47,185 bases of DNA from Minisyncoccota bacterium (GTDB lineage: Bacteria; Patescibacteriota; Minisyncoccia; Phycocordibacterales; SW-6-46-9). Positions 5,991 through 25,560 of the stretch are shown here, piece by piece. The notes beneath the pieces were generated by a model. That model worked only from the letters and a program-made list of their open reading frames with translations, had not been told where the DNA came from and did no database searches. Numbering within the stretch: the stretch's first letter is position 1; every line of letters starts with the position of its first letter. Location of the stretch: the NCBI GenBank assembly GCA_040904025.1, contig JBBDUG010000008.1, positions 1 through 47,185 on the forward strand, in the 5' to 3' direction. Made by a program: the position numbers and the translations under genes.

Positions 5991-6995
5991 TTATGATCCC
6001 AACAAAGAAAGAGCGTGCTTAATTTCCTCTTGCAGATCATACGCGTTTCCGTGAGAAAGTAACCCGTGATACGACTGTAGGGTATCTGGGTTTGAATTAT
6101 TCTCAAGAGCTCTAAGTACTCTGCGTTTGGTTGTTGTTCTCAGCACTCTGTGGTCGGGAAAGTGAACCCACCCGAGGAAATCAACTCCTGATGCAAGAGT
6201 CTCTATTGAAACTTTTCGTGGGTGGAGTTTGAGACTGAGCTCGGTTTCAAGAAAGGAAGAGATTTGTGGAATGAGAGATTCGAGCCACCCTCTATCCTCA
6301 GAGAGGAAAACAAAATCGTCTGCATATCTAATGTAGTACTTTGTTTTTAGTTTGTGCTTCACATACTGATCAAAAACATTCATGTATACGTTCACAAGGA
6401 GCTGTGAGGTGAGATTTCCAAGCGGAAGCCCTGTCCCTAGTCTATGTACATGAAAGCTTGAGATTACCTGCCTCAGAAGCCACGTAATATCTTCATCAGG
6501 AATATATTCTTCAAGAATCGATATTAATATCACATGATCAATGGAGGCAAAGAATTTTCTGATATCACATTTGAGTACATGTGCCGTGCGAGTGTGATTC
6601 TTTGATACCTTGTATGAAAACACCTTGAACCTATCCATCGCTCTGTGTGTCCCCTTTCCGATTCTGCATGAATATGAGTCTGCGATGAATGTACGGTCGA
6701 AGAAAGGATAGAGCTTTTGGTGAAGTGCGTGATGCAGGAGTCTGTCTCGCACTTTCGCCTTGTGGATATTGCGCGGCTTTGGATCTGATATATTAAATGC
6801 CTCATATGGAGAGTGAGAATATTCTTTGTCTGAGAGATCAGAATGAAGTTCGAGAATGTTTTCCATGAGGTTGAGTTCAAACTCCTGTACATCACGCCTT
6901 CCCCTCTTTCCTCTCACAAATTCCTCCCATGCAGAGAGAAGATTTTCGAGAGATATGATATCCTCATATGTATGAGTGAAGACAATTTTTCCCAT
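5991..6995 (-). CDS. DGR reverse transcriptase (DGR1)
   Basis: 334 aa; GKGTH, LKCDIRKFF, GLPLGNLTSQ (DGR-type SQ), RYADD, GVDFLG; adjacent Avd and TR/VR pair. Confidence 0.95.
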   Translation of the reverse strand: MGKIVFTHTYEDIISLENLLSAWEEFVRGKRGRRDVQEFELNLMENILELHSDLSDKEYSHSPYEAFNISDPKPRNIHKAKVRDRLLHHALHQKLYPFFDRTFIADSYSCRIGKGTHRAMDRFKVFSYKVSKNHTRTAHVLKCDIRKFFASIDHVILISILEEYIPDEDITWLLRQVISSFHVHRLGTGLPLGNLTSQLLVNVYMNVFDQYVKHKLKTKYYIRYADDFVFLSEDRGWLESLIPQISSFLETELSLKLHPRKVSIETLASGVDFLGWVHFPDHRVLRTTTKRRVLRALENNSNPDTLQSYHGLLSHGNAYDLQEEIKHALSLLGS

Positions 6996-7024
6996 ACATT
7001 AAAGGATACCCCCCCCCACGACTT

Positions 7025-7372
7025 TTGCCAGTCATCCAGAAGACAAAACAGGTATACAAAGTGTGGATACCAATTCATCGAAACATGCCACGGGTTGAAC
7101 GGTTTGGGATCGGTACTAGAATAGATACTAAATTTCTCGATCTCCTAAATCTTTTGCGAAAAGCAGCATATGCAAGAGCAGAGGACAAAGTTGAGCCACT
7201 TAAGAACGCAGTCTCTACGTTAGATTCTCTGAGATTTTTCCTCCAACTCTCATGGGAGGTTTCTTTGATTCCTAATAAGCAATATACACGTCTCGGAAAA
7301 GATGTAGAAGAGATAGGACGTATGGTTGGAGGCTGGAAGAAAGGAATAGAAAAGAAAACTTCCGCCCGTTAG
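7025..7372 (+). CDS. avd: Avd-like four-helix-bundle accessory protein (DGR1), antisense to TR/RT; start uncertain
   Basis: MPRVERFGIG...EEIGRMVGGWKK signature; only a TTG start in frame, and an upstream ATG (6972) is out of frame across a C9 tract. Confidence 0.85.
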   Translation: MPVIQKTKQVYKVWIPIHRNMPRVERFGIGTRIDTKFLDLLNLLRKAAYARAEDKVEPLKNAVSTLDSLRFFLQLSWEVSLIPNKQYTRLGKDVEEIGRMVGGWKKGIEKKTSAR

Positions 7373-7380
7373 AGCGGAAG
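7359..7380. other. Hairpin between avd1 3' end and TR1 3' end
   Basis: CTTCCGC-ccgttaga-GCGGAAG; same position as the 24270-24299 hairpin in DGR3. Confidence 0.6.
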
Positions 7381-7393
7381 AAAGAAGAGAGTT

Positions 7394-7506
7394 GCGAGAA
7401 AAGACCTGGTTGCCATCGTTCCACCTGTTCGGGTTCTCGATCGAGTTAGCCTCGACGTTCCAGCCGCGGTTGTCGGAGTTCCAGTTGGCGTTGACTGCCC
7501 AGAGAA
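7394..7506 (-). repeat. DGR1 template repeat (TR1)
   Basis: 113 bp match to 7840-7952; 16 mismatches, all at TR adenines; 10 AAC codons in the target frame. Confidence 0.97.
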
Positions 7507-7824
7507 ATGTGCACCATCCCATCCGTTCCACCACCCTTTGAATGCTCTCCGGGTTGTATCTAATGTGGGACATCATAAGTCCACCAGCATAGTGCACCGA
7601 TTCAATTCTTTTTTAGGAATATGTACATATACCCTTGTACAAGACGTATCCAGTACAATTCTCACACCATACATATCCGAGGCGTGGTGCAGAAGCCGTA
7701 GCCGCCGCGACAAAACTTCCTCATAGATACTGTATCAAAATTAAAGACCCTCTGCATAATTGCACACGCGTGCAAAGATACAAAGGGTCTAAAGTGAAAA
7801 AGAAAGAGCAGAAGCTCAAGGGGT

Positions 7825-8454
7825 TCAAGCGACAGAATCGCGAGAAAAGACCTGGTAGCCACCGTCCCACCTGCTCGGGTACTCGATCGAGTAAGCCTCG
7901 ACGTACCAGCCGCGGCGGCCGGAGAACCAGAGGGCGCGGACTGCCCAGAGAACTCCCTGGCTGTCGCGAATGTAGAAGATGTTCGCGTAGCCGTTTGTGA
8001 GAAGGTCTCCATCTTCACCCTGTCCTTGCCGCTTCAAGAGCGACCAAAGGTGTGAGAGTGAAGTCTCGACAATTTCCTCACCGCCTAGCTCGTGAATAAT
8101 CGGTATATCGCGCGAGTATTCACGCAAACGGTGGATCTTGAGCTCGGTGTCTTCGACGTTTTCCTCGATCTTGCCGAGGAAGTGTGACTTGAAATTCGAG
8201 CCAAGCCAGATAATTGAGACGCCGTCGGTCTCTTTGCCTTCGCGGAAGTTGTCTTTCGCGATGAATTCCTTGGCGCCGCGAGCCGTAGTCGTTGAGAAGA
8301 ATTCGAGGATACGAGGCTTCTCGGGTTCGACGAGTTGGAACTGGATCTCATCAGAGAGAATGCGACGTGCGTTCTCTTCGCCGATCTTTTTGACGAGCGC
8401 GTTAAGTTGCCCGATCGTCCAGTCCTTCGTGAGCCATGATAATAGCTGTGTCAT
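7825..8454 (-). CDS. DGR1 target protein (209 aa, no signal peptide, C-terminal variable region)
   Basis: C-terminus encoded by VR1. Confidence 0.92.
   Translation of the reverse strand: MTQLLSWLTKDWTIGQLNALVKKIGEENARRILSDEIQFQLVEPEKPRILEFFSTTTARGAKEFIAKDNFREGKETDGVSIIWLGSNFKSHFLGKIEENVEDTELKIHRLREYSRDIPIIHELGGEEIVETSLSHLWSLLKRQGQGEDGDLLTNGYANIFYIRDSQGVLWAVRALWFSGRRGWYVEAYSIEYPSRWDGGYQVFSRDSVA
7840..7952 (-). repeat. DGR1 variable repeat (VR1)
   Basis: At the 3' end of the 7825-8454 gene; all 10 TR AAC codons are changed (R,L,F,R,Y,Y,Y,S,D,Y). Confidence 0.97.
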
Positions 8455-8552
8455 TGTGCTTCCCCCGGGCTTCCTTGCCCGTGTTTGTACTCCTCAAGCG
8501 GAGCGTTCTTGCTAGAGGATCACCCTTTGTGATCATAGCTAATCTATTATTA

Positions 8553-8581
8553 ATTATCTCATACCTTATTACCTCTGTCAA
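8553..8581 (-). promoter_or_regulatory. Sigma70-like promoter for the DGR1 target
   Basis: TTGACA-17 nt-GATAAT with TGn extension on the minus strand, ~100 bp upstream of the ATG. Confidence 0.6.
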
Positions 8582-8635
8582 CTACTAAATCACGGCTAAC
8601 TAAAGCTCTCTTTTAACGCAATGACTTTCTCCCTT

Positions 8636-9601
8636 CTAACTGTTTGATATCGGGGTTGATGTTCCTGATTCCTCTTCAACGCCGGCAGAGTTCGTTTCGT
8701 CTTCTTCTGTGTTCTCCACTTCAGTATCTTCTCCCCCGTTCTCACTCTCCACCTGCTCATTAATCTGCGGTGTCTCACTCCCCTCTGCACCCTCATCAGC
8801 CTGGGATTCTTTTGTATCATCCTCGGAAGAAGGAGTCGGATCTGTCGATGTAGATATATCATCTGCCGGCGCCTCTTCTGGTACAGGATTAGTTGAGGTT
8901 GCCACCTCACTATCTTCTCCCACAACAGATGGTGTAGAGGTTGCTGAGTTTGTGTCTGTTGATTGAGTAGATGTTGACGTAGATGTAGATACCACCTCCG
9001 TTTCTTTTTCTGTTTCCGTTTGCATAATGCTTCCCATTTCAGATCGTGTTTTTCCAACACTCGGGTCTCCTGAATCAGCATATCGGCGCTCGTTTTTTGC
9101 CTGCGGTCTCGTGACACTTGCAAGAGAGCCGAGAAGGCTCCGAAGTGTGGATTTTTCCTGTGTTACGACACCCTCTATACGTGCACGTTCAATAGCCTGC
9201 ACGCGCACAAGATAATCGCGCTCACGCTCCCCTCTCTCACGGAGCTCACTCGTGACATACACCTCGATTTCCTCCTCTGACATACTACCTGCCTCCACTT
9301 TCAATACGTCTGACTTTCGTACCGGTTGCCACATACCTTCAATCACTTCCCATGTGCTATATGTATATTCCACATACACGTACGTATCATCCTCGTATAC
9401 ACTTGTGACTTCGATATTCGCATCGTATGAATCAAAGCTCGCGCCAACGAGACGAGATGTATCAACCGGCACCTGTTGATTCTCACGCACCTGCGTGTAC
9501 GCAAATGCTGAGGATGAGATAACAAAGGCGGTGATGATGAGGGCGGGAAACGCGTTGTGATATTTAATGAAGTCTATAAGATTTTTCATACGTGTGTTCA
9601 T
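8636..9601 (-). CDS. Exported/membrane-anchored protein with acidic S/T/E-rich tail, directly downstream of DGR2 RT
   Basis: 321 aa; N-terminal hydrophobic segment ending AFA; begins 5 bp after the RT2 stop. Confidence 0.8.
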   Translation of the reverse strand: MNTRMKNLIDFIKYHNAFPALIITAFVISSSAFAYTQVRENQQVPVDTSRLVGASFDSYDANIEVTSVYEDDTYVYVEYTYSTWEVIEGMWQPVRKSDVLKVEAGSMSEEEIEVYVTSELRERGERERDYLVRVQAIERARIEGVVTQEKSTLRSLLGSLASVTRPQAKNERRYADSGDPSVGKTRSEMGSIMQTETEKETEVVSTSTSTSTQSTDTNSATSTPSVVGEDSEVATSTNPVPEEAPADDISTSTDPTPSSEDDTKESQADEGAEGSETPQINEQVESENGGEDTEVENTEEDETNSAGVEEESGTSTPISNS

Positions 9602-9606
9602 AGTTA

Positions 9607-10638
9607 TTAATATGTAAAGGGTATGTCGAGCCGGCGCTCAAGATCGCGCCTCAATCCCCACGATGATCCCTTGCGCGCATACTGATACCAAGATTCAATA
9701 GAGCGGTCAAACTGATCTTGCGTCATCGCTTCACGCGCTACCATCTTTCGATACGCGCGTGTCCGACGCACGAAACGTTGTACCGTACTCCTACGCAGAA
9801 GCCGGTGATGTGGAAAGAGGCGAAATCCAAGAAAATCAAGACCGGTGCGGTGCGGGAAGACCGCAACTTTGCGCGGGTTCATCACGAGCTTAAGTTTCTC
9901 TTCCAGAAACTCATTCATTCGGGTTGAGCACTCATGCAGATATTTCTTATCATTCGAGAAGATAACAATGTCATCCATATAGCGTATGTAGTACTCGGCT
10001 TTGAGCTCCCGCTTAATAAACTGATCCAGTTCATTAAGATAAATGTTTGCAAAGAGCTGGCTTGTGAGATTCCCGATCGGAATACCCTTGCCATACGTGA
10101 GGTCATACGAACTCTCAATAACGATTCGACAGAGATCAACGACGCGCCTATCGCGAATCTTGTGTTTTATAAGAGAGAGTAGAATCTCATGATTAATAGT
10201 CGCAAAGTACTTTGAGATGTCGGAGGTCAGCACATACTCTGTTTTGTGCATGAAGTGTTCCGCACGATCGAGGGCGACGTGCGTCCCTTTCCCCTCTCTA
10301 CACGCATAACTGTCATATATGAACATCGGCTCAAAGATGGTTTCTAGTGCGTAGTAGAGAGCATTGTGCACAACACGGTCACGGAAGCATGCCGCTTTTA
10401 TAAGACGCTTCTTTGAATCGCGAACAATAAAGGTACGATACTGCCCGTGTGTATATGTACCGTCATGGAGCTCGTCACGAATATCAACGAGATTGTCCTC
10501 GAGATTATACCCAAAGTGAAGCACCTGCATACGATACCGCTTTCCTCGACGCGCCCTCTCCCACGCCGCATAGAGTGCGGGTATAGAAGCAATAGTATGG
10601 AATATGTTGTTGTATGTTTTCATACGTAATATATACAA
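9607..10638 (-). CDS. DGR reverse transcriptase (DGR2)
   Basis: GKGTH, DISKYF, GIPIGNLTSQ, RYMDD, GLDFLG; start may be MKTYNN at 10623. Confidence 0.95.
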   Translation of the reverse strand: MYILRMKTYNNIFHTIASIPALYAAWERARRGKRYRMQVLHFGYNLEDNLVDIRDELHDGTYTHGQYRTFIVRDSKKRLIKAACFRDRVVHNALYYALETIFEPMFIYDSYACREGKGTHVALDRAEHFMHKTEYVLTSDISKYFATINHEILLSLIKHKIRDRRVVDLCRIVIESSYDLTYGKGIPIGNLTSQLFANIYLNELDQFIKRELKAEYYIRYMDDIVIFSNDKKYLHECSTRMNEFLEEKLKLVMNPRKVAVFPHRTGLDFLGFRLFPHHRLLRRSTVQRFVRRTRAYRKMVAREAMTQDQFDRSIESWYQYARKGSSWGLRRDLERRLDIPFTY

Positions 10639-10820: not shown

Positions 10821-10937
10821 TACCAGGCGCATCGGAAGCCAATGTTGGAATTCGTGTTCGAGGGCGAGTTGTTCAGGTTCAGCGTGAAGACACCCGCATC
10901 GTCGCCATTATCCCAGTTCCCGCCACGTTGGAAGGCA
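10821..10937 (-). repeat. DGR2 template repeat (TR2)
   Basis: 117 bp match to 11392-11508; 10 mismatches at TR adenines plus 1 G/C difference. Confidence 0.97.
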
Positions 10938-10975
10938 ACCGTTGCTCGAGGTGCAGCCCTTCATATAGACACACC

Positions 10976-11314
10976 CTAGGAATTATTTTTTATCCATCCT
11001 CCGACCATCTTGCCGATCTCCGAGAGCCGCTCCGCCGCAAACGCATACTGCCGTGAGCCGATGAAATTGAGATCGCGCGCAACGCGCATGAGTGTTTTGA
11101 GCATATCCACGAGCAGACTCAGCTCATAGAGGTGCGGAAGTTTGCGACGCGACGCGTTAGCGCGCATGATGCATTTCAGGATTCTGAGGATGGTACTTTC
11201 AATGTGCTGTCCCAAGACGAATCTCTGCGACTTAGGAAACTTATTTACCGTCGGATAGATCCAGAGAAGCAATTCGTACGTCTTCTCGTATATCGCAAGG
11301 TCTTTATATGTCAT
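10976..11314 (-). CDS. avd: Avd accessory protein (DGR2)
   Basis: 112 aa; KFPKSQRFVLG...EIGKMVGGWIK; canonical target-avd-TR-RT order. Confidence 0.93.
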   Translation of the reverse strand: MTYKDLAIYEKTYELLLWIYPTVNKFPKSQRFVLGQHIESTILRILKCIMRANASRRKLPHLYELSLLVDMLKTLMRVARDLNFIGSRQYAFAAERLSEIGKMVGGWIKNNS

Positions 11315-11390
11315 AGAACTAAAGTTGAAAGAACTAAGCTATCCTACCCCCACCCCACGCCCGGCCAATCCAAATTCCAAATTTCTGTCA

Positions 11391-14300
11391 TTACCAGGCG
11401 CATCGGAAGCCAAAGTTGGAATTCGTGTACGAGGGCGAGCTGCTCAGGTACAGCGTGAAGACACCCGCATCGTCGGCATCATCCCAGCCCCCGCCACGCC
11501 GGAAGGCATGATAATCACTGTTATACCCGACACCGTCATACGCGTGGCCCGGATTGATATATATTTTTCCGATGCCATACGTAGAGTCCCAACTAATATC
11601 CCAGGGGCGCAGATCGTGACCTTGATAGTCGGTAACGGCCGTATACTCGAACCAGTTGGGGGTAGTGACATTTCCCGCCTTCACCATCTCCATAGTAATA
11701 CCATCATTATCATTACCATTGCCCGTAGCTGCGGTATCATCTTCAATGATATAGGCGTCGACCCACTCCCACACATTTCCGGAGAAATCCCAGATCGTTT
11801 CTGCATTTGAGAGTGCGAGTTCCGCTTTCGTATTGCGACCCGTTCCCGATTCAGGATTCGAGCCGTCATATGACACACTATCGGTTATGCCGATGTTCCC
11901 GCGCAATAACCCGCCCCCTGATGCCACGGTCGAGCCGATAACGCCATCGGCCCAGTTCCCCGTCTGCTTTGAGACGTTGTCGGCAATAGTCATCCACTCA
12001 GCGTTTGAGATGAGATGATACTCATCACCGAGCGCCTCACATTGCGCGCGAGCATCAGTTTGCGTAATACTCACCCATGGGTTTGAATTCGCCTGAGATG
12101 TCGCGACACCACTGACATTCTTTGCCTCATATTTCATTACACAAAATCCGGGGAGTGTGCCGTGCTTTGCCGAGCCCGGAACCCATATGTACCCCGTCGG
12201 ACAGTGTCGCTCGAATTCCTCCGCCACCACCTTATTCTCCACAACTATGTTTCCACCACCCGACACGGAGACTGACGGACATGCACCACCGGCACATACA
12301 TTAAAGTCTTCGTCGAGAAACGAGACGGTACCGCCGGAGGCCGAGAGTATGACATTTCCTGTTGCATCAACTTGGAATTCACTCCGACGCGACGCATCAT
12401 ATGCAATACGAAGCTGTGCATTTGCGACCGTATCGAAGACCTCAAATACGCGGGTAGGCGCGGAAGTACCCACACCCACTCGACCGGAGGACCAATCGAC
12501 CACGAGATTTCCCGAGCCAACATCAAATCCTCCGGCAAATGTACTCGTGGCCGAGGCATTTGAGGCCACGAAATTGTTTGCGGTGAGCTGTCCTGTGGTT
12601 GTATCGTCTCCGGAGTTTATAAGAAACGCATCATCGACATTGAGTGTATTTGAATTCCATGAGATATTTGTACCGGCTGTAATACGAGTAGAAGGGGTGG
12701 TATAGAAATTATCCCAGTTAGTGACAGAGGTGGAGAGCGGAATGGTATACCCACTCGAGAGCGCAAGTGCGTCTCCGGAAAGCTCGAGCCCTGTTGCTGA
12801 TACAGATAGATTTGTGTAGGTAGATATATCAATAGCGGTACCGTTCCATACACCCGTGGATATAGTTCCGAGTGTAGTGATAGAATCATCTCCGGTATAC
12901 GTACCCGCCGATACTGCATCAAGTATTGCGCTATACGCCTGTACATCAGATCCGATCGCAAGACCAAGATTCGTGCGTGCACCACTTGCCGTTACCGCCC
13001 CCGTTCCTCCGTATGCCACTGCAAGTGTATTTGCATTCCACGTTCCCGATGTCAATGTACCGACAGTAGCCAAATTGGGGGTGGAAAAGAGCGTTGCAAT
13101 GGTTGAGGTTGCATTGATACGTGCGTCTGCTCGTGCGTTGGTGAAGTAGAGGTTTGAGCCCTCTGCGAGGTCTGTTGTGGTGTTGTCAGAAAGATCATCA
13201 TCCGAGAGGGCTCCGTCATTGTTGGTAAAGACGTTAACCACTCCGGCAAGAAAACTCTCGAGTCCACTTTCAGTATTAGACTTGAGAATCGTTGATGATG
13301 CATTGATGTATCCTGCGGTATCTGTGTCAGTATAATGATCAAGATCAGAGATCTGTGACTCTGTGACGGAGAGGTTAGCAAGGGTTGTGATATTTGGGAG
13401 TGTTGTGGTTGCAGAGAGTCTCTCGTCGAAGCGGGTATTGGTCCAATAGAGATTTGATCCCTCAGATAGTGCATCAGTCGTTGTTGCACTAAAGAATGTA
13501 TGGAAAGGAGTCCCGAAGTTTGTGAGATTGCGTGCATCAAGGTAGTACACCCCTTCTTGTCCATCAAGTGTTCCCGTCCAATCTCCTGTTTTTGTTATGT
13601 ATCCGTCACCAATAGCTGTTCCCTGCCAGGTACCGCTTGTGACAGTCCCTACCTCACTCAAACCGGAAACCGATATATCGCCCGCAAAAGTTGATGTTGC
13701 CGTGGTTGATGTTGCCTGAATATAGGGAACTGTGATCGCGCCTGAAAGTGTTTGAGAACCGGAGACGGTAAAGTTGCCTGATATCGTCGCATCACCGGAA
13801 ACAGAAAGGGAGGTGATTGTTGTTCCTTCTGCATTGAGAGTTCCACCAACATCAAGTGTGTACGCAGGAGTGGTTGTGAGAACGCCAACTCTATTGTTAT
13901 CTGCATCAATATAGAGCGTATCTGTATCAAAGGCAGAATTTCCCGATACCGAAAGTTCTTGAGTGCTCACCGATTGCGAGATAGACGAGTGTATATCACG
14001 ACGAGCATTTTCATCCTGACGCCGCGCGATGAAGGTAAGGTCTGACAACTTATTAGAGAGCGAACTGAGAATGTTCGCGATTGTCTCATCTCGCTGCACT
14101 GTTTCTTGTGCCGCGAGACGCAAACGAGATGAAAGCTCCGCTTCGCTCACACCGGGATATACGAGACGTTCTTCGTATACCACTCGTTCAATTATCTGAG
14201 GTGAGGAAGATTCAAGAGAAAGTGATGTTTGTGGAGTAGTTGTTCCTGCTATGCTCCCCCCCCCCTCAGGGTTTAGAGCATTGTGTCGGTCAAAGACAAC

Positions 14301-14792
14301 GGTACGTGGTGGAGCAAGAAGAGAAGCAAGAGCAAATGCAGCTTGAGACAGGTTGGTACGGATAGATTCTGTAAGTGAATTCACCCGCGAATGTGAAATA
14401 TCCATGTGATCCACGACATACGTAACCGTACTCCTCATTGAGGAGACAGTTTGAGAAATTGTGTTGCCGGAAAATGATGAAGCAACAAACGGTGTTGCGA
14501 TAAGGATAAAAACAAGACTTGCCACAACCACTGGTCGTACCATAGGGATTAAAGAAAAAGAAGAATGTGGTTCATTCGCTTCCTCTTCATCAAGATAAAA
14601 ACTCTCTTCCAAATCCTGCCTGTATTCTTCAAGAAGTACTTTATCAATATGCCATTTCCCTTCTCCTTTGTAGACAGACTCAATCACTCGTGCACGACAG
14701 AGGCGCATGATGTGATCTTCTGACCACCCAGTGAGGTGTGCCGCCGCTTCAATGGAAATATACTCCTGATTCTCTGAATCGTGAAAAGCCAT
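11391..14792 (-). CDS. DGR2 target: large surface protein (N-terminal HTH, TM helix, fibre-like stalk, C-terminal FGE-sulfatase/C-type-lectin-fold domain)
   Basis: 1133 aa; YISIEAAAHLTGWSEDHIMRLCR (excisionase-like HTH), VVVASLVFILIATPFVA TM, repeated EGSNLY.TN.R and GT.TSGTW motifs, FCVMKYEA, DFSGNVWEW, RGG.W...GFRC. Confidence 0.92.
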   Translation of the reverse strand: MAFHDSENQEYISIEAAAHLTGWSEDHIMRLCRARVIESVYKGEGKWHIDKVLLEEYRQDLEESFYLDEEEANEPHSSFSLIPMVRPVVVASLVFILIATPFVASSFSGNTISQTVSSMRSTVTYVVDHMDISHSRVNSLTESIRTNLSQAAFALASLLAPPRTVVFDRHNALNPEGGGSIAGTTTPQTSLSLESSSPQIIERVVYEERLVYPGVSEAELSSRLRLAAQETVQRDETIANILSSLSNKLSDLTFIARRQDENARRDIHSSISQSVSTQELSVSGNSAFDTDTLYIDADNNRVGVLTTTPAYTLDVGGTLNAEGTTITSLSVSGDATISGNFTVSGSQTLSGAITVPYIQATSTTATSTFAGDISVSGLSEVGTVTSGTWQGTAIGDGYITKTGDWTGTLDGQEGVYYLDARNLTNFGTPFHTFFSATTTDALSEGSNLYWTNTRFDERLSATTTLPNITTLANLSVTESQISDLDHYTDTDTAGYINASSTILKSNTESGLESFLAGVVNVFTNNDGALSDDDLSDNTTTDLAEGSNLYFTNARADARINATSTIATLFSTPNLATVGTLTSGTWNANTLAVAYGGTGAVTASGARTNLGLAIGSDVQAYSAILDAVSAGTYTGDDSITTLGTISTGVWNGTAIDISTYTNLSVSATGLELSGDALALSSGYTIPLSTSVTNWDNFYTTPSTRITAGTNISWNSNTLNVDDAFLINSGDDTTTGQLTANNFVASNASATSTFAGGFDVGSGNLVVDWSSGRVGVGTSAPTRVFEVFDTVANAQLRIAYDASRRSEFQVDATGNVILSASGGTVSFLDEDFNVCAGGACPSVSVSGGGNIVVENKVVAEEFERHCPTGYIWVPGSAKHGTLPGFCVMKYEAKNVSGVATSQANSNPWVSITQTDARAQCEALGDEYHLISNAEWMTIADNVSKQTGNWADGVIGSTVASGGGLLRGNIGITDSVSYDGSNPESGTGRNTKAELALSNAETIWDFSGNVWEWVDAYIIEDDTAATGNGNDNDGITMEMVKAGNVTTPNWFEYTAVTDYQGHDLRPWDISWDSTYGIGKIYINPGHAYDGVGYNSDYHAFRRGGGWDDADDAGVFTLYLSSSPSYTNSNFGFRCAW
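11392..11508 (-). repeat. DGR2 variable repeat (VR2)
   Basis: Encodes AFRRGGGWDDADDAGVFTLYLSSSPSYTNSNFGFRCAW at the target C-terminus. Confidence 0.97.
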
Positions 14793-15078: not shown

Positions 15079-15252
15079 CCCCAAACACTACACCTCTTTT
15101 TTTCTTTGTGTCGGCCCTTTTCCTTAAAGCGGAAGCGTAGTGTTCAGGGGTGCTTTGGCGAGGCATAAGCCGAGCGCGAAGGCGCGCAGCGCGCGACTAG
15201 TCTTTAAGCTTAAATTCGAAAAAGGTTCGCGTAGCGTGTATAATTTCTTCAC
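15079..15252. repeat. Inverted repeat IR2-right (attR element arm)
   Basis: 174 bp reverse complement of 5812-5985 with 1 mismatch. Confidence 0.95.
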
Positions 15253-15297
15253 CAAAGAGAGAGCTAGTTCGAGCACTCTAAAAGGGTCGAATTAGCT

Positions 15298-15368: not shown

Positions 15369-15575
15369 ATGAAAGATGATGCTAAAAAGTTGGGTGAAAA
15401 TCTTAAAAAAATCAGAGCTAAGAAAAATATAACTCAAACAGAGCTTGCACTAATTCTCAATGTCGATAAATCTTTTGTTAGTAACATTGAAAATGGGAAA
15501 AACAACCCAACTCTTTCAACTATTACCAATCTAGCAAAAGCTCTCAAAGTTCCGGTCGATGAGCTTTTCAAATAA
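15369..15575 (+). CDS. XRE-family HTH transcriptional regulator (possible R-M controller protein)
   Basis: 68 aa; LKKIRAKKNITQTELA...SNIENGKNNPTL. Confidence 0.9.
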   Translation: MKDDAKKLGENLKKIRAKKNITQTELALILNVDKSFVSNIENGKNNPTLSTITNLAKALKVPVDELFK

Positions 15576-18258: not shown

Positions 18259-18262
18259 TATT

Positions 18263-20200
18263 ATGAAAACTATTCAAGTAGCAGAAGCAACATACGCACA
18301 AACAGGACAAAGCACTAAGCTTAATGAGCTTGGTATGCGTGAGATGCAGGCAAAAGCATTTGAAAAAAGAAATGCACAATACCTGCTTTTGAAAGCACCT
18401 CCCGCATCTGGTAAATCACGAGCTTTGATGTTCCTGGCGTTAGATAAATTAACCAATCAGGGAATTAAAAAAGTTATTGTTGCTGTTCCTGAAAAATCTA
18501 TCGGTGGGTCCTTCAGTGAGACTAATTTAACTAGTGGTGGGTTCTTCGCTGATTGGAAACCAAACGATCACTACAATCTTTGTACCCCGGGACTGGATAA
18601 TGCTAAAGGTAAAGTTGAGGCGTTCAAGAATTTTATGGATAACGACGAGAAGATTCTTATCTGTACACACGCAACACTTCGCTTTGCGTGTGAGCAAATT
18701 GAAGATACAAAGTTTAATGATGCACTCATTGCAATTGACGAATTTCACCATGTTTCAGCAGATAAAGATACTAGTCGCTTAGGTAATGTGTTGCATGGAA
18801 TAATGACCAGCTCTAATGCACACATAGTCGCTATGACAGGGTCATATTTTCGTGGCGACGGTGTAGCTGTTTTATTGCCACAGGATGAGGCTAAGTTTGT
18901 AAAAGTAACATACAACTACTATCAGCAGTTGAACGGCTATACATATTTAAAGACCTTGGGTATTGGATACCACTTTTATCAAGGTAAATACACATCAGCT
19001 ATTGCTGAAGTTTTGGATACGAACAAGAAAACGATTTTACATATTCCGAACGTAAACTCTGGAGAATCTACAAAAGATAAGCTCAACGAAGTTGACTTAA
19101 TTCTGGATATTATCGGTGAGGTGGATCATCAAGATCATGAGACTGGCGTGATCTATGTGAAGCGTGATGGTGACGGAAAAATGCTTAAAGTCGCAAACCT
19201 GGTTGATGATTCAGTCGATCGAGACAAGATATCAAACTATCTTCGCACTATGAAAAACGAAGATGATATGGATATCATTATTGCTTTAGGTATGGCAAAA
19301 GAAGGTTTTGACTGGCCGTATTGTGAACATGCTTTGACTGTGGGTTATCGAAGCTCACTAACAGAGATCATTCAGATTATTGGACGTTGCACTCGAGATA
19401 GTGCAAACAAGACGCATGCGCAATTTACAAACCTAATAGCGCAACCAGATGCAAAAGACGGCGAAGTTAAAGTGTCGGTCAATAATATGTTAAAGGCAAT
19501 AACATGCTCTCTGCTCATGGAACAAGTAATGGCTCCTCATTATAATTTCAAACCACGATTCCCAAACGATGATACAAGCTTCACGCCAGGTGAAATTAAA
19601 GTAAATGGATTCAAAGCGCCTAGTACTGATCGTGTACAAGAAATTATTGAATCAGATATTAATGATCTTAAGGCCACTATTCTTCAAGACGATCAGATGG
19701 TTAAGGCATTGCCTGGAAATGTTGATCCAGAGGTAATAAACAAAGTGATGATACCGAAGATTATTCAAATGAAATACCCTGATCTTACTGATCTTGAAGT
19801 TGAAGAAGTTCGTCAGCATGTCGTTGTTGATTCTGTGATCAAGAATGGAGAAATCAAAGAAGTTGGAGATAAGAAATTTGTTCGTATGGCGGGACAGTTT
19901 GTAAATATAGATGATCTCAATATTGACCTTATCGACAGCATCAATCCGTTCCAAGAAGCTTTTGAAATTCTCTCAAAATCAGTAACCTCAAGTATTCTTA
20001 AAGTTATTCAAGATACTATTGATTCATCTCGAATTGAAATGACTCCCGAAGAGGTTAAAATTCTATGGCCTAAGGCAAAAGAGTTTACAATTCAAACAGG
20101 TCGAAAGCCTGAGATTTCTTCCTCGGACCCTCTCGAAAAACGACTTGCCGAGGCAGTGTTGTATTTGAAAAAACTTAAGGCTGAACAAGTGCAAAATTAA
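18263..20200 (+). CDS. YeeB-like superfamily 2 helicase/ATPase
   Basis: APPASGKS Walker A, DEFHH, MTGS, KEGFD, QIIGR. Confidence 0.88.
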   Translation: MKTIQVAEATYAQTGQSTKLNELGMREMQAKAFEKRNAQYLLLKAPPASGKSRALMFLALDKLTNQGIKKVIVAVPEKSIGGSFSETNLTSGGFFADWKPNDHYNLCTPGLDNAKGKVEAFKNFMDNDEKILICTHATLRFACEQIEDTKFNDALIAIDEFHHVSADKDTSRLGNVLHGIMTSSNAHIVAMTGSYFRGDGVAVLLPQDEAKFVKVTYNYYQQLNGYTYLKTLGIGYHFYQGKYTSAIAEVLDTNKKTILHIPNVNSGESTKDKLNEVDLILDIIGEVDHQDHETGVIYVKRDGDGKMLKVANLVDDSVDRDKISNYLRTMKNEDDMDIIIALGMAKEGFDWPYCEHALTVGYRSSLTEIIQIIGRCTRDSANKTHAQFTNLIAQPDAKDGEVKVSVNNMLKAITCSLLMEQVMAPHYNFKPRFPNDDTSFTPGEIKVNGFKAPSTDRVQEIIESDINDLKATILQDDQMVKALPGNVDPEVINKVMIPKIIQMKYPDLTDLEVEEVRQHVVVDSVIKNGEIKEVGDKKFVRMAGQFVNIDDLNIDLIDSINPFQEAFEILSKSVTSSILKVIQDTIDSSRIEMTPEEVKILWPKAKEFTIQTGRKPEISSSDPLEKRLAEAVLYLKKLKAEQVQN

Positions 20201-20201
20201 T

Positions 20202-21350
20202 ATGGATAAAAAAGATTTACTAGATTTAATAAACGATGACGATTTGGGACTTCTCGATCTAGATAAGAAGTCTGCTTCTGCTACGCCCGATGATCGATTA
20301 TCTGAATCATTCATGGAAATAAATGAGTTTTTTGCATTACACAATACAGAACCCAGGAACGGTGGAGACATCCATGAACATAAGCTCGCTTCACGACTTA
20401 AGCATATTAGAGAAAATAAAGAGCAAAAAGACTTTCTAAGTAAATTTGATATTCATAATCTACTAAAGACTACAGCGAAAGAACTCGACACCGTGAGTGA
20501 TATTTTTGCAGATGATGATCTGGATCTTCTTTCAATTGAGGATAGTTCTGTTTTTAATATAAAGAATGTTCCAGAGATCAGACAAGATCGTTCGGACCCT
20601 GACTTTGTTGCACAGAGAGAGATTTGTGCTGATTTTGATCAGTACGAACATTTATTTGAACAGGTTCAAAGAGATTTGAAAACTGGAACAAAAAAACTCG
20701 TTACCTTTGTGGAAAGTGAAATGAAACAAGGAGACTTTTTTGTTCTTAGTGGTGTTTTGATATATCTAGAAAAAATCTATGATCCATACAGAGGTAATAG
20801 TCAGAAAATAAACCGAAGAACTCGTTGTATTTATGAGAACGGAACTGAATCAAGCGTTTTGTTGCGATCATTAGGTAAAAGACTTTCTGATGCAGGATAT
20901 GCAATAAAAGATAATTCAGAAATAATGCCTATCGAGAGCGGAGATTCTGAGACAGGATACATTTATGTACTTAAATCACTCAGTGATAACCCAAGGATCG
21001 CTAGCACTAAAAATCTTTTTAAGATTGGTTTTTCAACTACTAATGTTGAAGAACGTGTAAAGAATGCGGATCAAGACCCAACTTATCTTATGGCTCCAGT
21101 TTCTATTGTCGCTACATACAGATGTTTCAATATGAACCCTCAAAGATTCGAAAGACTAATACACCGCTTCTTTAGTGATTCATGTCTAGACATTGAAATC
21201 ACCGACAGCAAGGGAAAAAACTACATCCCAAAGGAATGGTTCATTGCGCCAATTATGGTAATTGGAAATGTGATTGAGTTGATTATAAAAGGAGAGATTG
21301 TTAATTATTCTTACGACAAAAGCACTGAATCGATAATTAAGATTAAATAA
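20202..21350 (+). CDS. YeeC-like GIY-YIG/T5orf172 nuclease
   Basis: GYIYVLKS...FKIGFS...VEERV...FERLIH...EWF. Confidence 0.85.
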   Translation: MDKKDLLDLINDDDLGLLDLDKKSASATPDDRLSESFMEINEFFALHNTEPRNGGDIHEHKLASRLKHIRENKEQKDFLSKFDIHNLLKTTAKELDTVSDIFADDDLDLLSIEDSSVFNIKNVPEIRQDRSDPDFVAQREICADFDQYEHLFEQVQRDLKTGTKKLVTFVESEMKQGDFFVLSGVLIYLEKIYDPYRGNSQKINRRTRCIYENGTESSVLLRSLGKRLSDAGYAIKDNSEIMPIESGDSETGYIYVLKSLSDNPRIASTKNLFKIGFSTTNVEERVKNADQDPTYLMAPVSIVATYRCFNMNPQRFERLIHRFFSDSCLDIEITDSKGKNYIPKEWFIAPIMVIGNVIELIIKGEIVNYSYDKSTESIIKIK

Positions 21351-22623
21351 TCTTAATTATTTTGCTTTTCAAAACCAACTCGCTACTTATACACTCCAAC
21401 ACCGACCTCTGCTCTAAAACCGTCCCGTCTCTCAATACAAACTTCGCGTAGTCTTTGAGATCAATCGGCTCAATTTTCTCTGTTCGTTTCTTTCCCAAAA
21501 ACATCGCTTGGAGCTTTTTAAACTTCTGAATCTCACTATTTAGTTTGGCGTTTAACCTCACTTTATCAAGACTAATGGTATCAATCATTTTTAATAGAGC
21601 TTCAACCAGATTTGTTTCGTTCAAAGCAGGATTTTTGCAGTTCCTGTCCTTTGCTTTTGTACAACGGTAATACACGTAGCGGTTCACTCCACCAGCTTTT
21701 ATATTCTTAAACTTCTCATCGGCGGTAATGCCTGATCCGCAAATTCCACATTTCATGATTCTCGTAAAGGCAAACTCCTTGCCTTGTGATTTGATGACCT
21801 GTGACTTGATCGAACTTCTAGTCTCGTCAAATAATTCTTTAGTAATAAGTGGTGTATGTTTTCCGTCATACCAAATTCCTGCACCCTGTGGAAATTCAAA
21901 CTTTCCGTAGTAGAAGGTGTTATTGATAATCTTAAATACATTTCCAATACTTAGGTGATAACCACGAAGAGTTTTGAAATCTAGATCATATTTAAGCCAC
22001 GCATGTACCTTTGAAGCACTCCACTTATCATAGGCAATCTTTTCAAAGATTTGTTTAATGGTATCAGCTCGCTCTGGATCAATTTCAACCTCGCACTTTG
22101 CTAAACGACCATCCACCTTTTTGTATCCAGTTGGTGGCTGTGCTGGCCATAAGCCCATCTCACACCTTGTCCTCATACCACGCTTAACATTGATACTCTT
22201 ATTATCATTCTCGAGTTTTGCCTGAGAACACAGAATCATGAGCAGGAACTTGTCGCTTGGTGAATTAGTGAAATTTTGTCCGAACGTCTTTATAGTAATG
22301 AGCTTCTTTTGATCCATGCGATCAACTAACTTTCCTAAGTCACCAGCGTTACGAGAAAGTCGATCAGGTGCCCAAGTGATAATAGCGTCAAATATATTGT
22401 TATCGATATCTTTTACAATCTCTTCAAACACAGGTCGTTGCCCAGACTCTTTTGCAGAATGTGACTCACGTCTAATTTCAATAATGTTTAGTTTTTCTCG
22501 CTCAGCAATTTGCGTCATTTCCTTGATTTGAGAATCAATGGAAAGAGCTTGCTTCTCGTCTCCTTCGGTCGACTTTCTGGCGTATAGGACGTATTTATAA
22601 CTACTTACCTCTGTATCTGTCAT
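21343..22623 (-). CDS. Large serine recombinase (second copy, 426 aa)
   Basis: YARKS, DRLSRN, PPTGY, CGIC...YYRC. Confidence 0.93.
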   Translation of the reverse strand: MTDTEVSSYKYVLYARKSTEGDEKQALSIDSQIKEMTQIAEREKLNIIEIRRESHSAKESGQRPVFEEIVKDIDNNIFDAIITWAPDRLSRNAGDLGKLVDRMDQKKLITIKTFGQNFTNSPSDKFLLMILCSQAKLENDNKSINVKRGMRTRCEMGLWPAQPPTGYKKVDGRLAKCEVEIDPERADTIKQIFEKIAYDKWSASKVHAWLKYDLDFKTLRGYHLSIGNVFKIINNTFYYGKFEFPQGAGIWYDGKHTPLITKELFDETRSSIKSQVIKSQGKEFAFTRIMKCGICGSGITADEKFKNIKAGGVNRYVYYRCTKAKDRNCKNPALNETNLVEALLKMIDTISLDKVRLNAKLNSEIQKFKKLQAMFLGKKRTEKIEPIDLKDYAKFVLRDGTVLEQRSVLECISSELVLKSKIIKII

Positions 22624-22762
22624 ATATTAATTAATGACAGACCAGTTTGTGGTGCATAGTCTATGCAGAATAAAGGAAACGTCGCATAGTCTTATTATTG
22701 CCTTTACCATCCATTCTTAACTAGGTGACGTGAATTTGCTAAAATATGATCACAAAATCCAA

Positions 22763-22863
22763 GACCTAACCCTCGAAAGAGATATGGTCACAAAAACCGT
22801 CCAAGGTAGCGTCCTCGCATGAGGATTCGACCTTTTGTGTCGAGTCGGTGCGAGGATTTTGCT
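22763..22863 (+). promoter_or_regulatory. Structured leader motif, short copy
   Basis: GACCTAAC-CCTC/GAG-ATATGGTC, CCGTCCAA.GTA, then a TCCTCGCA/TGCGAGGA stem; same layout as 25883-26061. Confidence 0.5.
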
Positions 22864-23913
22864 TTATTCACTCAGCCAGAAATGAAACCTATTCCGGATA
22901 TCTTGCTCTAGCTCGTAGGCATCCGCATGTGAGAGAACGCCCATATAGGATTCGAGCGTAGAGCGTAGCCTTAGCTCGTTGATCTCGCCGCTTCGGTACC
23001 TGAGTACCGTCTGTCGCAGTTTCCTCGGAATTCGGCGTTTTGTCTTTGCACGCAGTTGTATGTGCTTCGGCAGAATGATGTAGCCGAGAAAGTCCACACC
23101 CCGTAAATGCTTCATCAGATGAATCTTTTTCGGGTGAAGTTCCAGTCGCAGTTCTTTCCCGAGAAACTCCTGCATCGGGGTGAGCAGTCTTTCGAGATAT
23201 GCTCTGTCGCCAGAAACAATCACGAAGTCATCTGTGTATCGAGCATAATGTTGAACCTTCAACTTGTGCTTCATAAATTGATCGAACTCATTCATGTAGA
23301 TGTTGGCGAAAATCTGCGAGGTCAGGTTTCCGATTGGGACACCTCTGCGCTCGAAGAGATTCGGTCGGCTTGCGGCAAAGCTCTCGACGATCTCTCGCAT
23401 AAGGTCCATGACTTTCTCGTCCTTGATTTTTGAATCAAGAATTCGGAGCAAGACATCGTGGTCGATGGAGTCGAAGAACTTCCGCACATCGCACTTGAGC
23501 GCGTAGCAGGGGCGGGTGTTGTTGCGACTTACGGCACGAATCATTTCAGCAACTTTCTCTACTCCTTTGTGTGTACCTTTCCCAACACGACAGGAGAACG
23601 ATGTTGGAATAAAGGTTGGCTCAAAGATTGGATTGAGGACGCTAAAAACCGCGTGATGAAGCACGCGGTCGCGGACAGTCGCCTTGTGGATTCTCCGGAG
23701 TTTTGGGTCGTGGATCCAAAAACCCCTGTATCCTCCGTGCCGATAGGTACCGTTCTTGAGTTCGCGATATAAGCCGAAGATATTCTCTTCAAGATTAACC
23801 TCGAACTCAATCACATCCGGCTTGTTGCGCTTGTCTGACTTGAATACCTCCCACGCACGGAATAGTGCTGACGGAGAAATTATTAACCAATGTAATTCCT
23901 TATATATTTTCAC
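22864..23913 (-). CDS. DGR reverse transcriptase (DGR3)
   Basis: 349 aa; GKGTH, LKCDVRKFF, GVPIGNLTSQ, RYTDD, GVDFLG. Confidence 0.95.
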   Translation of the reverse strand: MKIYKELHWLIISPSALFRAWEVFKSDKRNKPDVIEFEVNLEENIFGLYRELKNGTYRHGGYRGFWIHDPKLRRIHKATVRDRVLHHAVFSVLNPIFEPTFIPTSFSCRVGKGTHKGVEKVAEMIRAVSRNNTRPCYALKCDVRKFFDSIDHDVLLRILDSKIKDEKVMDLMREIVESFAASRPNLFERRGVPIGNLTSQIFANIYMNEFDQFMKHKLKVQHYARYTDDFVIVSGDRAYLERLLTPMQEFLGKELRLELHPKKIHLMKHLRGVDFLGYIILPKHIQLRAKTKRRIPRKLRQTVLRYRSGEINELRLRSTLESYMGVLSHADAYELEQDIRNRFHFWLSE

Positions 23914-23916
23914 GCT

Positions 23917-24267
23917 ATGAATGATTTAGACATACCCATTTTCAAGAAATCCTACGATCTCTACAAAGAGTTCTACCTCTTGCGCCTGTCAGTTCCTAAA
24001 CAAGACCGCTACACGCTTTGGCAGAAGTGCGAGTCGCTCCTTATCGATATTCTCGAAGGGATACTATTCGCAAGCCAGCAGTCGAAGCAAGAGAAGCTCC
24101 CAACCTTGGAAAAGACGAGCGTACGACTCAACTTCCTTAAGGTGTGTGTCCGGCTCATGAAGGATCTAAAAGCCATCGACGGCAAACAGTACGTTCTCAT
24201 AGAAGCGAATCTCGATGAGGTCGGTCGAATGCTTGGCGGGTGGATAAAGTCAACGAGAGAGCGATAA
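23917..24267 (+). CDS. avd: Avd accessory protein (DGR3), antisense to TR/RT
   Basis: 116 aa; DIPIFKKSYDLY...PKQDRYTL...EVGRMLGGWIK; start codon 3 bp from the divergent RT start. Confidence 0.93.
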   Translation: MNDLDIPIFKKSYDLYKEFYLLRLSVPKQDRYTLWQKCESLLIDILEGILFASQQSKQEKLPTLEKTSVRLNFLKVCVRLMKDLKAIDGKQYVLIEANLDEVGRMLGGWIKSTRER

Positions 24268-24269
24268 CA

Positions 24270-24299
24270 GAAACTCCCGCTTATGACGGCGGGAGTTTC
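24270..24299. other. Hairpin between avd3 3' end and TR3 3' end
   Basis: GAAACTCCCGC-ttatgacg-GCGGGAGTTTC, 11 bp perfect stem. Confidence 0.7.
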
Positions 24300-24316
24300 C
24301 GGATAGAGGTTGACTG

Positions 24317-24432
24317 CCTGGCAGACGAAACGCCGATGTTGCCGTTGCGGTTGTCGTCCCAATAGTTGTTGACGTTCAGACCCTCGGCATCGAAGTTGCC
24401 GACGTTGACGCGGTTGCCGTCCGAGTCGAGAT
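24317..24432 (-). repeat. DGR3 template repeat (TR3)
   Basis: 116 bp match to 24790-24905; 15 mismatches, all at TR adenines; 9 AAC codons. Confidence 0.97.
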
Positions 24433-24708
24433 ATTGCCCGTTTCCGTCCGTGGCACCGGAACCCGAGGGTTACTACTCTTGCGAGTCTATGTCCTCTCGT
24501 TCCTGAATTTGATTCGGGAGCAGCTCTTTCGAGCATCTCCACTAGATGCGGGCAAGAAGTTCTCTCTATCCCTTTCGCGCTCTGCCGTGATCCGTAAACC
24601 ACTGGCACTCCGGCGATCTCAAGGTGAGATATCCCGCGAGTGTGAACCGTAACCCACACTACATTAGCAAGATAGTAAAAGTATAAGTTGTAAAAATATA
24701 AAAAGAAA

Positions 24709-24742
24709 GAGCCTCCGGCGAAAAAAATTCGCGCGGAGGCTC
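24709..24742. other. Hairpin downstream of VR3 (DGR target-recognition hairpin and/or terminator)
   Basis: GAGCCTCCG-GCGAA-aaaaa-TTCGC-G-CGGAGGCTC about 40 bp past the target stop, followed by a U-rich run on the minus strand. Confidence 0.65.
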
Positions 24743-24780
24743 AAGTATTCAAGAGGGACAAGCCCTCAAGGATTCAAGGT

Positions 24781-25560
24781 TCACTGCTTCCTGGCAGACG
24801 AAACGCCGACGTAGCCGCCGCGGCGGCCGTCCCAATAGAGGTCGACGTCCAGACCCTCGGCATCGAAGTAGCCGACGCGGACGCGGTAGCCGTCCGAGTC
24901 GAGATCAGCGCAACGAACGTAGATCTTCTCGAACAAGCGTTCCCCAGTAGCGAGGAAATGGCCAACCATGGTGTAAACCACGATCCGAGCAGTCGGCGTT
25001 TCCTCGTCTTTCGAGAGGAGTGCCTGCTGATCGTTCCACGTCTTCGAGGTCGAGTTGACGATCGGTTCCTTGCGGACGAGCTGCCAGCCGACTTCGCCCT
25101 TATCCTTGGCGAACGCTTGCTTGTCATACCAGTCCTGTGAGTAAAACAGGGTCTGGTTTTCGAGCTTGCGGGTGACGCCACGGATGTCGAGGATCGACAG
25201 CGGGAAGACGGCGACGAGGATGTGAGTGTCCTTGCAGGACTTCAGCACTTCCTCGCTGAACGGAACTTCTGCCAAGTAAGCGAGCTGTTGCTTCGTGGTG
25301 TTAACCCCGAAGTGTTTGATCGCTTCCTCGATGCCGAAGAAGTTCTTGCCCATGATCGCGCGGGCGAGCTTCTGTGACGTTGACGGCTCGTAACCGCCGT
25401 TGACCATGAGTCGTGCGATGTTCGCCACGAATGCAGGGTCGGTGTTGATGCGGGATGCGACTTCTTCGGCGTTGTCGCCGATCGCTACCCACAGACGTTG
25501 ATTGGCGGCATTGATGTCGCCAGCGGGGACTTGAGTCCATGTTTTCATGATGGTTTTCAT
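24781..25560 (-). CDS. DGR3 target protein (259 aa, no signal peptide, C-terminal variable region)
   Basis: C-terminus encoded by VR3; ARAIMGKNFFGIEEA and TGERLF segments. Confidence 0.92.
   Translation of the reverse strand: MKTIMKTWTQVPAGDINAANQRLWVAIGDNAEEVASRINTDPAFVANIARLMVNGGYEPSTSQKLARAIMGKNFFGIEEAIKHFGVNTTKQQLAYLAEVPFSEEVLKSCKDTHILVAVFPLSILDIRGVTRKLENQTLFYSQDWYDKQAFAKDKGEVGWQLVRKEPIVNSTSKTWNDQQALLSKDEETPTARIVVYTMVGHFLATGERLFEKIYVRCADLDSDGYRVRVGYFDAEGLDVDLYWDGRRGGYVGVSSARKQ
24790..24905 (-). repeat. DGR3 variable repeat (VR3)
   Basis: All 9 TR AAC codons are changed (Y,R,Y,D,D,L,R,G,Y). Confidence 0.97.

Follow-up and report, generated by a model that had tools for sequence, protein, structure and literature searches.

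The DNA analysed here, 47,185 nucleotides that we call the window, is an entire contig (C8; JBBDUG010000008.1) of the Minisyncoccota bacterium assembly GCA_040904025.1, which holds 681,915 bases in 59 contigs at 43.6% G+C and has an estimated completeness of 94%. Within 20 kb of it lie three diversity-generating retroelements (DGRs), each made up of a reverse transcriptase (RT), an accessory protein (Avd), one template repeat (TR) and a target gene that ends in a variable region (VR), and the window also has two large serine recombinases, SR1 and SR2 (Table 1). DGRs are, to our knowledge, the only system of targeted protein hypermutation in prokaryotes, and bacteria of the candidate phyla radiation (CPR) are their richest cellular home. 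Our reading, which we consider probable, is that the three DGRs are separate and intact, were acquired independently, arrived on two serine-recombinase elements, and act on their own targets by mutagenic retrohoming.

Table 1. Features of the window, with position, strand and the evidence or remarks that go with each.
Feature	Position	Strand	Evidence and remarks
SR1, large serine recombinase	4042..5700	-	Pfam Resolvase + Recombinase + Zn_ribbon_recom; YARKST
tRNA-Glu(CTC)	4063..4136	+	ARAGORN; Rfam tRNA 60.1 bits; junction alignment; its 3′ end forms the attachment site's left half
Arm X (P′ side of attP)	4133..4262	+	130-nt inverted repeat; the SR1 ORF's 3′ coding end lies here too
Internal inverted spare attP	5686..5985	-	rc(X) 5686-5815 and rc(Y) 5812-5985, meeting at core 5812-5815
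RT1	5991..6995	-	334 aa; YADD, GNLTSQ; RVT_1 E=3e-22; RT1-type clade
Avd1	7025..7372	+	bAvd 59.5 bits, cut-off 40; strand opposite to RT1 and TR1
TR1	7388..7506	-	30 adenines; 11 AAC codons in VR frame
Target 1	7825..8454	-	209 aa; no family; VR1 at 7834-7952
321-aa ORF	8636..9601	-	between DGR1 and DGR2; no Pfam, NCBIfam or PADLOC match
RT2	9607..10638	-	343 aa; YMDD, GNLTSQ; RVT_1 E=6e-26; clade with other CPR lineages
TR2	10821..10937	-	repeat search, alignment
Avd2	10976..11314	-	bAvd 92.5 bits, cut-off 40; strand of RT2 (avd-TR-RT order)
Target 2	11391..14792	-	1133 aa; weak N-terminal HTH_17; C-terminal FGE-sulfatase/C-type-lectin-like domain; VR2 at 11392-11508
Arm Y (P side of attP)	15079..15252	+	inverted repeat; ends in attR core TCAC 15249-15252
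Type IIG (MmeI-like) restriction-methylase, SF2 helicase, T5orf172 protein	15559..21350	+	between both elements; Pfam
SR2, second large serine recombinase	21343..22623	-	Pfam Resolvase + Recombinase + Zn ribbon; YARKST
RT3	22864..23913	-	349 aa; YTDD, GNLTSQ; RVT_1 E=4e-27; RT3-type clade
Avd3	23917..24267	+	bAvd 59.6 bits, cut-off 40; strand opposite to RT3
TR3	24314..24432	-	repeat search, alignment
Target 3	24781..25560	-	259 aa; no family; 1141 homologues; VR3 at 24787-24905
LOOT RNA (Rfam RF03000)	25883..26004	+	78.6 bits, gathering 46.4; divergent from target 3
Small HTH/TerS-like gene	27060..27464	-	weak Pfam matches; homologues in 4 RT3-type loci

The signature of a DGR is the relation between its two repeats. 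A direct-repeat search of the window finds three two-copy families of 117–119 nt and 85–91% identity, one for each DGR, and in every pair the copy with the lower coordinates, read on the minus strand, is the adenine-rich TR. Mismatches between TR and VR fall on TR adenines in 17 of 18 cases in DGR1 (the other is C>T), 10 of 11 in DGR2 (G>C) and 15 of 16 in DGR3 (C>A), and Fisher tests of adenine against non-adenine sites give p=1e-11, 6e-7 and 3e-10. When the roles of the two copies are exchanged, just 0, 0 and 1 mismatches lie on VR adenines. A preliminary description of this DNA, made from the sequence alone, had counted 16/16, 10/11 and 15/15. The adenine bias stands, with 17 rather than 16 for DGR1, and since the non-adenine mismatches of DGR1 and DGR3 sit at positions 116 and 117 of 119, at the edge of the repeat, the difference in counts is a matter of repeat trimming only.

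The repeats are also placed as expected with respect to the reading frames. In the VR frame, TR adenines occupy codon positions 1 and 2 in 29/30, 24/26 and 30/31 cases (DGR1, DGR2 and DGR3, as in all triplets here), and the TRs hold 11, 6 and 9 AAC codons. Each VR forms, in frame, the last ~40 codons of an open reading frame (ORF) and ends 9, 1 and 6 nt short of the listed ORF end, stop codon included. Every pair closes with roughly 16–24 nt free of adenine changes, a candidate for an IMH-like segment, and past this point the similarity of TR to VR is lost. On the minus strand, strong hairpins that may be part of the DGR RNA, found without a shuffle control, come directly 3′ of TR1 and TR3: a 9-bp stem with a CTTCCGC..GCGGAAG core (7300–7387) and a 13-bp stem (24230–24313). 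No TR matches another TR, and each matches solely its own VR at E<0.1 across the 682-kb assembly; the genome-wide TR search that the preliminary description had proposed finds no remote VR in this 94%-complete assembly. Its claims of three complete RT, Avd, TR and VR sets, with unalignable TRs and one VR for each, are borne out, all parts being recovered by the direct repeats and the RVT_1 and bAvd models.

All three RTs carry the motif-4 ‘SQ’ that is a hallmark of DGR-type RTs, and no further DGR-type RT is present in the assembly. As candidates for group II intron, retron or DRT enzymes they were rejected, since all three score under the cut-offs of those models. The cassettes come in two arrangements. 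DGR1 and DGR3 have the layout TR-(avd)-RT, with avd reversed between TR and RT, and in DGR2 the target, avd, TR and RT all share one strand in the order avd-TR-RT.

The target proteins do not resemble each other: profile comparison with hhalign finds no relation among the three. For target 2 the FGE-sulfatase model scores 30.3 bits against a cut-off of 23.3, and the sequence closes in ..GFRCAW. Sequence and profile searches of the PDB with all three targets return nothing meaningful, and the ESM Atlas returns Minisyncoccota clusters only. In 15 further homologues of target 3 the first 218 residues are nearly constant and the VR is hypervariable.

A useful view of activity comes from public sequencing. 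Four runs of one study (X1–X4) hold this stretch of DNA, and we compared their assembled contigs (Logan) with the window. A 7,175-nt contig from X2 (7939–15113) differs from the window by 4 letters, all of them within VR2 (117 nt): two fall on TR adenines, a third goes back to the G of the TR at the window's sole non-adenine mismatch in this repeat, and the last is T>A. In X1 a second contig (depth 18.2 of 35.2) also differs from the window in VR2. The best homologue of target 3, likewise of 259 aa and encoded on a 3,200-nt public contig, differs by 9 residues, all in VR3, and all 9 changes can be obtained from the TR3 codons through A-to-N substitution alone. A record of equal length from X3 (record 24) differs from the window by 12 letters and may be the contig of the homologue. 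Contig pieces break at or inside all VRs in X1 (7852/7939, 11413/11490 and 24809/24864) and at VR1 in X2; we set these breaks aside, since a lack of cover is not evidence. Because VR2 and VR3 differ while thousands of flanking bases are identical, we argue for recent activity, as had been proposed from the near absence of non-adenine changes. The comparison supports taking this pattern as the trace of active, or very recently active, DGRs.

DGR1 and DGR2 lie in tandem, exactly between the Y arms of an 11.1-kb SR1 element (4137–15252) whose 9.1-kb cargo they make up; the preliminary description had placed both in an element of this size. Two adjoining inverted repeats give the element its shape, one of 130 nt around SR1 (4133–4262 vs 5686–5815, 99% identity) and one of 182 nt around both DGRs (5804–5985 vs 15079–15260, 98%). 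Its left junction, attL, runs out of tRNA-Glu as GGGGTCAC followed by AATATAG, with the core TCAC at 4133–4136. The right junction, attR, is TTCTTCAC followed by CAAAGAG, and an internal site, read on the other strand, is TTCTTCAC followed by AATATAG. On the minus strand this internal site consists of Y, TCAC and X, in other words a complete attP, inverted, between the recombinase gene and the cargo. With this spare attP kept inside the element, the recombinase gene and the cargo are each flanked by long inverted repeats. The bases CA after attR would give back the tRNA end ..ACCA in the empty site. A contig end in X3 joins a slightly different tRNA 3′ end straight to position 15249 onward, the mark of a related strain whose site is unoccupied.

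Both recombinases contain YARKST, which we take to be the catalytic serine motif. The true start of SR1 may be a Met at about 5655. At its other end the listed SR1 ORF crosses the attL core and runs antisense over tRNA-Glu for ~31 codons; relatives have stop codons in this part, so the tail is probably not meaningful.

The SR1 element belongs to a widespread family. Of 400 other genomes in the order, 210 encode SR1-like proteins (E<=1e-40), and this genome has a second element with a spare attP (C39:76355-79242) at tRNA-Ser(TGA), with the core CCGCCAATT and a cargo of only ~1 kb. Its Y arms (117 nt) are 100% identical, its X arms 80%, and its recombinase is 43–44% identical to SR1. Among 20 loci fetched from other genomes, 4 of which are cut by a contig end, the first repeat pair is present in all, a tRNA is abutted in 17 (ARAGORN) and a clear second pair is seen in 12; single-contig genomes (G337, G093 and G109) show the same layout. 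In a wider set of 80 loci, which overlaps the first, the first pair is found in 72 and the second in 19 of the 37 that have at least 3 kb upstream, and in 31 a contig ends less than 600 nt upstream of the gene for the recombinase, where a repeat would lead one to expect a break. Two loci (L032 and L045) appear, when read by eye, to have P arms almost back to back and to be elements without cargo. The 3′ end of the recombinase gene points toward the tRNA in all 22 oriented copies (the 20 fetched loci, C8 and C39), so frequent flipping of the recombinase module is unlikely.

What relatives of the SR1 element carry is largely of another kind. The cargo of 13 of them includes Shedu (in two), a UG17-type defence RT, UvrD helicase, a deaminase, Nudix and small Xre regulators, as well as restriction-modification genes (DpnII, MvaI/BcnI, Mrr, GmrSD/HNH, and EcoRI-type and C5 methylases). 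In one (L034:11102-12589) the 495-aa UG17-type RT stands beside a LexA-S24/C5-methylase fusion. The 9.1-kb cargo of the window exceeds all 19 delimited cargos, though the 10-kb flank limits this comparison.

DGR3 is associated with a different carrier. As the preliminary description had it, this DGR lies next to the second serine recombinase: SR2 begins 240 nt downstream of RT3. SR2 is 33% identical to SR1 and has no long repeats. The RT loci compared here were chosen as the best RT matches plus multi-DGR clusters, those of the RT3 type being fetched with about 8–9 kb of flank. A recombinase of the SR2/SR4 type (55–88% identity) is found in 10 of 16 RT3-type loci against 0 of 24 RT1-type loci (Fisher p=9e-6, computed over kin that are not independent), usually downstream of the RT and often followed by a tRNA. 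Some other serine recombinase is carried by 3 of the 24 RT1-type loci.

The LOOT RNA gives a second link. It is present in 6 of 10 scanned RT3-type loci (L052, L053, L060, L065, L066 and L087), always on the strand opposite to the DGR genes, its place changing between upstream of the target and downstream of the RT. This genome has another copy on C51, the contig that carries the SR4 recombinase. Among 150 sampled genomes 40 bear LOOT, and 23 of these have no DGR-type RT match in a hand cross-check, which argues that LOOT belongs to the element and not to the DGR. The small HTH/TerS-like gene probably belongs to the SR2/LOOT-type element as well. Where contigs from other members of the community match SR2, they part from the window at about 21368 and 22688, and this hints at one end of the element near the 3′ end of SR2.

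The ancestry of the three cassettes is best followed through their RTs. Within the window the RTs are 38–47% and the Avds 23–36% identical in pairwise comparison. A quick IQ-TREE phylogeny of 52 rows (the three RTs of the window, 29 from genomes of the same order, and 20 relatives of RT2 taken from databases) places RT1, RT2 and RT3 in separate clades (support 94–100, with a root split of 100/100; SH-aLRT 99 for the RT1-type and 97 for the RT3-type clade), each shared with RTs that belong to other families of the order or to other CPR lineages. RT1-type relatives are 63–70% identical and RT3-type relatives 54–74%. At E<=1e-90, a threshold that speaks of close kin only, RT2 has no relative in the 400 genomes of the order; its best relatives, 49–59% identical, bear the names of several other CPR lineages. 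Since the RT clades are separate and the targets have no profile similarity, the cassettes arrived separately. The independence of the DGRs that had been suggested earlier thus fits the RT phylogeny, in which each RT has nearer kin in other genomes than in the window, and the sequences support independent acquisition rather than local duplication.

Taken together, these observations suggest the following scheme. DGR1 and DGR2 would have been brought as cargo of the 11.1-kb element, SR1 inserting at the 3′ end of tRNA-Glu, and DGR3 in an SR2-type element that also holds the LOOT RNA and the TerS-like gene. In each DGR the RT with its Avd would copy the TR transcript into cDNA, misreading adenines, and the cDNA would replace the VR at the 3′ end of the target gene of the same DGR. 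Such mutagenic retrohoming would rewrite a C-terminal patch of ~40 residues in three unrelated proteins. The data show the anatomy of the DGRs, their adenine specificity and independent ancestry, the logic of the att junctions, the recurrence of both types of element and the confinement of sample differences to the VRs. We infer the retrohoming mechanism from the Bordetella phage paradigm, and we also infer that SR1 and SR2 carry out excision and integration, and what the targets do.

Several points weigh against this reading. The samples were compared as contigs and not as raw reads, so that frequencies and rare variants are invisible, and X1 and X2 are possibly the source samples. Two of the four VR2 changes in X2 (the T>A and the one at a G/C position) fall outside TR adenines, the VR2-variant contig of X1 aligns in an indel-like pattern, and for VR1 the contig comparison lists no letter differences. 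No joints for excision or inversion of either element are reported in the contig data, where a circular junction would be indistinguishable from the internal spare attP because the two have the same sequence. For the SR2 element no ends were found, neither an attL nor an attR. DGR cargo is atypical of the SR1 family, with no DGR-type RT in 19 delimited cargos or in 80 loci, and, defence genes being the usual cargo, the window holds an unusual element, a defence-island vehicle loaded with two DGRs. Finally, targets 1 and 3 have no sequence match in Pfam, NCBIfam or the PDB, and a lectin-like domain is matched in target 2 alone.

The restriction to contig data and the VR2 changes off TR adenines would also suit another explanation, that the DGRs are intact-looking relics and the VR differences record old retrohoming fixed in diverged strains. 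A caution by Wu et al. (2018, PMC5758913) about reading function from genomic DGRs points the same way. However, no difference is seen in the flanks over 7,175 nt and about 3 kb, with the VRs differing by 4 letters and 9 residues; every ORF is intact and the catalytic motifs are present, and two versions of VR2 occur together in one sample (X1). We therefore regard relics as unlikely.

A further concern is that the contig could be chimeric, with DNA of different organisms joined at the long inverted repeats, since repeats of 130 and 182 nt are prone to misjoins by assemblers. Contig depth, a poor measure here, can be read in this direction: in X1 it is 35–38 over 5951–15113, that is, over the cargo, and about 50 over the flank at 15223–25599, and the contig of the Y arm is at 47.7, not at twice the depth of the cargo. 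The cargo is likewise below its flank in X2 (29.5 vs 38–50) and in X3 (about 3–5 vs 10). The same depths are, however, consistent with an element that just a part of the population carries, and X3 has the empty site. The three junctions follow the logic of attL, attP and attR and restore the tRNA CCA, and the layout recurs with other sequences on C39, in single-contig genomes and in 72 of 80 loci, which makes a chimera very improbable. As a separate observation, the Y-arm contig shared by 5812–5980 and 15084–15252 is close in X1 depth to the right flank (49.5) and lacks the doubling expected of a two-copy repeat. In-place duplication and divergence, with the serine recombinases as incidental neighbours, has a parallel in relatives whose DGR clusters have no recombinase close by (G176:C1 with three RTs in 45 kb; G131 and G155 with two in 7–12 kb), but we give it hardly any credence given the identities, separate clades and closer outside kin of the RTs, the unrelated targets and TRs, the different cassette layouts and the exact fit of DGR1 and DGR2 between the Y arms.

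The picture of independent DGRs carried on recombinase elements modifies one proposal of the preliminary description, that serine-recombinase elements are collecting DGRs at one hotspot in a tRNA island. Carriage holds up, on two unrelated types of element and not on one. Collecting does not hold in general: the pairing of RT3-type DGRs with SR2-type recombinases alone recurs. There is no tRNA cluster, as the window has a single tRNA gene (ARAGORN, Rfam), and the hotspot is better described as an accessory island of ~29 kb (about 4.1–33.3 kb) bounded by tRNA-Glu and fur. Housekeeping genes lie on either side, thrS to the left and, starting at about 34 kb to the right, those for fur, a ZIP transporter, a PBP, mraW and mraZ. 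Besides the DGRs the island contains the type IIG enzyme (PADLOC REase_MTase_IIG, 1018.8 bits), the helicase, the T5orf172 protein, a methylase, a LexA-like protein, a SAVED-HNH effector and a SMODS cyclase; the LexA-like S24 peptidase is followed by the effector (PADLOC E=5e-104) and the cyclase as a CBASS-like pair at 29079–32176. Farther right (41056–43344) is a 762-aa surface protein with Ig-like domains, whose coding sequence has five tandem repeats of ~280 nt (41825–43200, 66–97% identity).

Three DGRs in one genome are nothing exceptional in this lineage, where multi-DGR genomes are common. A DGR-type RT match is found in 140 of 400 other genomes of the order, with at least two in 60, at least three in 29 and a maximum of 7 by hand count, although matches do not equal copy numbers and some contain stops. 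For comparison, Wu et al. (2018, PMC5758913) report more than one DGR in about 10% of the complete genomes that bear any, and Roux et al. (2021, PMC8144416) a CPR-restricted DGR clade and an enrichment of DGRs in CPR. In the former the layout TR-(avd)-RT is termed B3 and makes up 90% of the CPR set, avd-TR-RT is termed B1, and the authors state that on the mobile context of CPR DGRs essentially no information exists. DGR1 and DGR3 are like the CPR B3 DGRs described there in their reversed avd, their small targets without domains and the adenines in AAC codons; what differs is that two B3 cassettes and a third of another layout stand here within 20 kb, inside mobile elements.

DGR2 is closer in order to the prototype of Bordetella phage BPP-1 (avd-TR-RT), with which it shares the sequence of target-VR, avd, TR and RT on one strand and a VR at the end of a C-type-lectin-like (FGE-sulfatase) domain. 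Unlike in BPP-1, its target is a protein of 1133 aa with a weak N-terminal HTH and no phage tail fibre, its carrier is a recombinase island and not a phage, and RT2 has kin, at about 50–58% identity, among CPR RTs only.

The DGRs are of a known kind; the carrier is less ordinary. Large serine recombinases serve elements and prophages such as phiC31, Bxb1, A118 and SPbeta (SprA). SR1 and SR2 share with them the Resolvase, Recombinase and Zn-ribbon domains, and the attL and attR of SR1 share a short core; in contrast to such elements, the SR1 element uses the 3′ end of a tRNA as its target and holds a complete inverted attP. We found no description in the literature of a tRNA-targeting serine-recombinase element with a spare inverted attP. 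The attP of CTX-phi consists of two inverted dif-like sites, on which, in folded single-stranded DNA, the tyrosine recombinases XerCD of the host act. The double-stranded form with its two inverted copies of the attachment site resembles the arrangement here, and we treat this as a lead only, as SR1 is a serine recombinase and cuts duplex DNA.

The locus offers a delimited example of how DGRs move in CPR bacteria, with two of them between exact att junctions, and DGR3 adds a second type of element whose tie to its DGR lineage recurs across families. Three unrelated DGRs, two of them with signs of current activity, make a natural test bed for the insulation of RT, Avd and TR sets from each other. 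The restriction, Shedu and defence-RT genes that the SR1 family usually carries hint at a role in conflict for the diversified proteins. A broader idea, which we put forward as tentative and rather doubtful, is that the small recombinase islands by which anti-phage systems are shuttled also take up CPR DGR cassettes as plug-in cargo, and that the spare attP of one carrier family has its own function. If this is true, the diversified proteins would be horizontally traded conflict or sensing proteins, for example the target of DGR2 with its HTH and lectin-like ends, for which no signal peptide was noted, and the carrier would be a mobile-element design new to print, in which the spare site may serve regulation of the recombinase, switching of orientation, or a folded single-strand attP.

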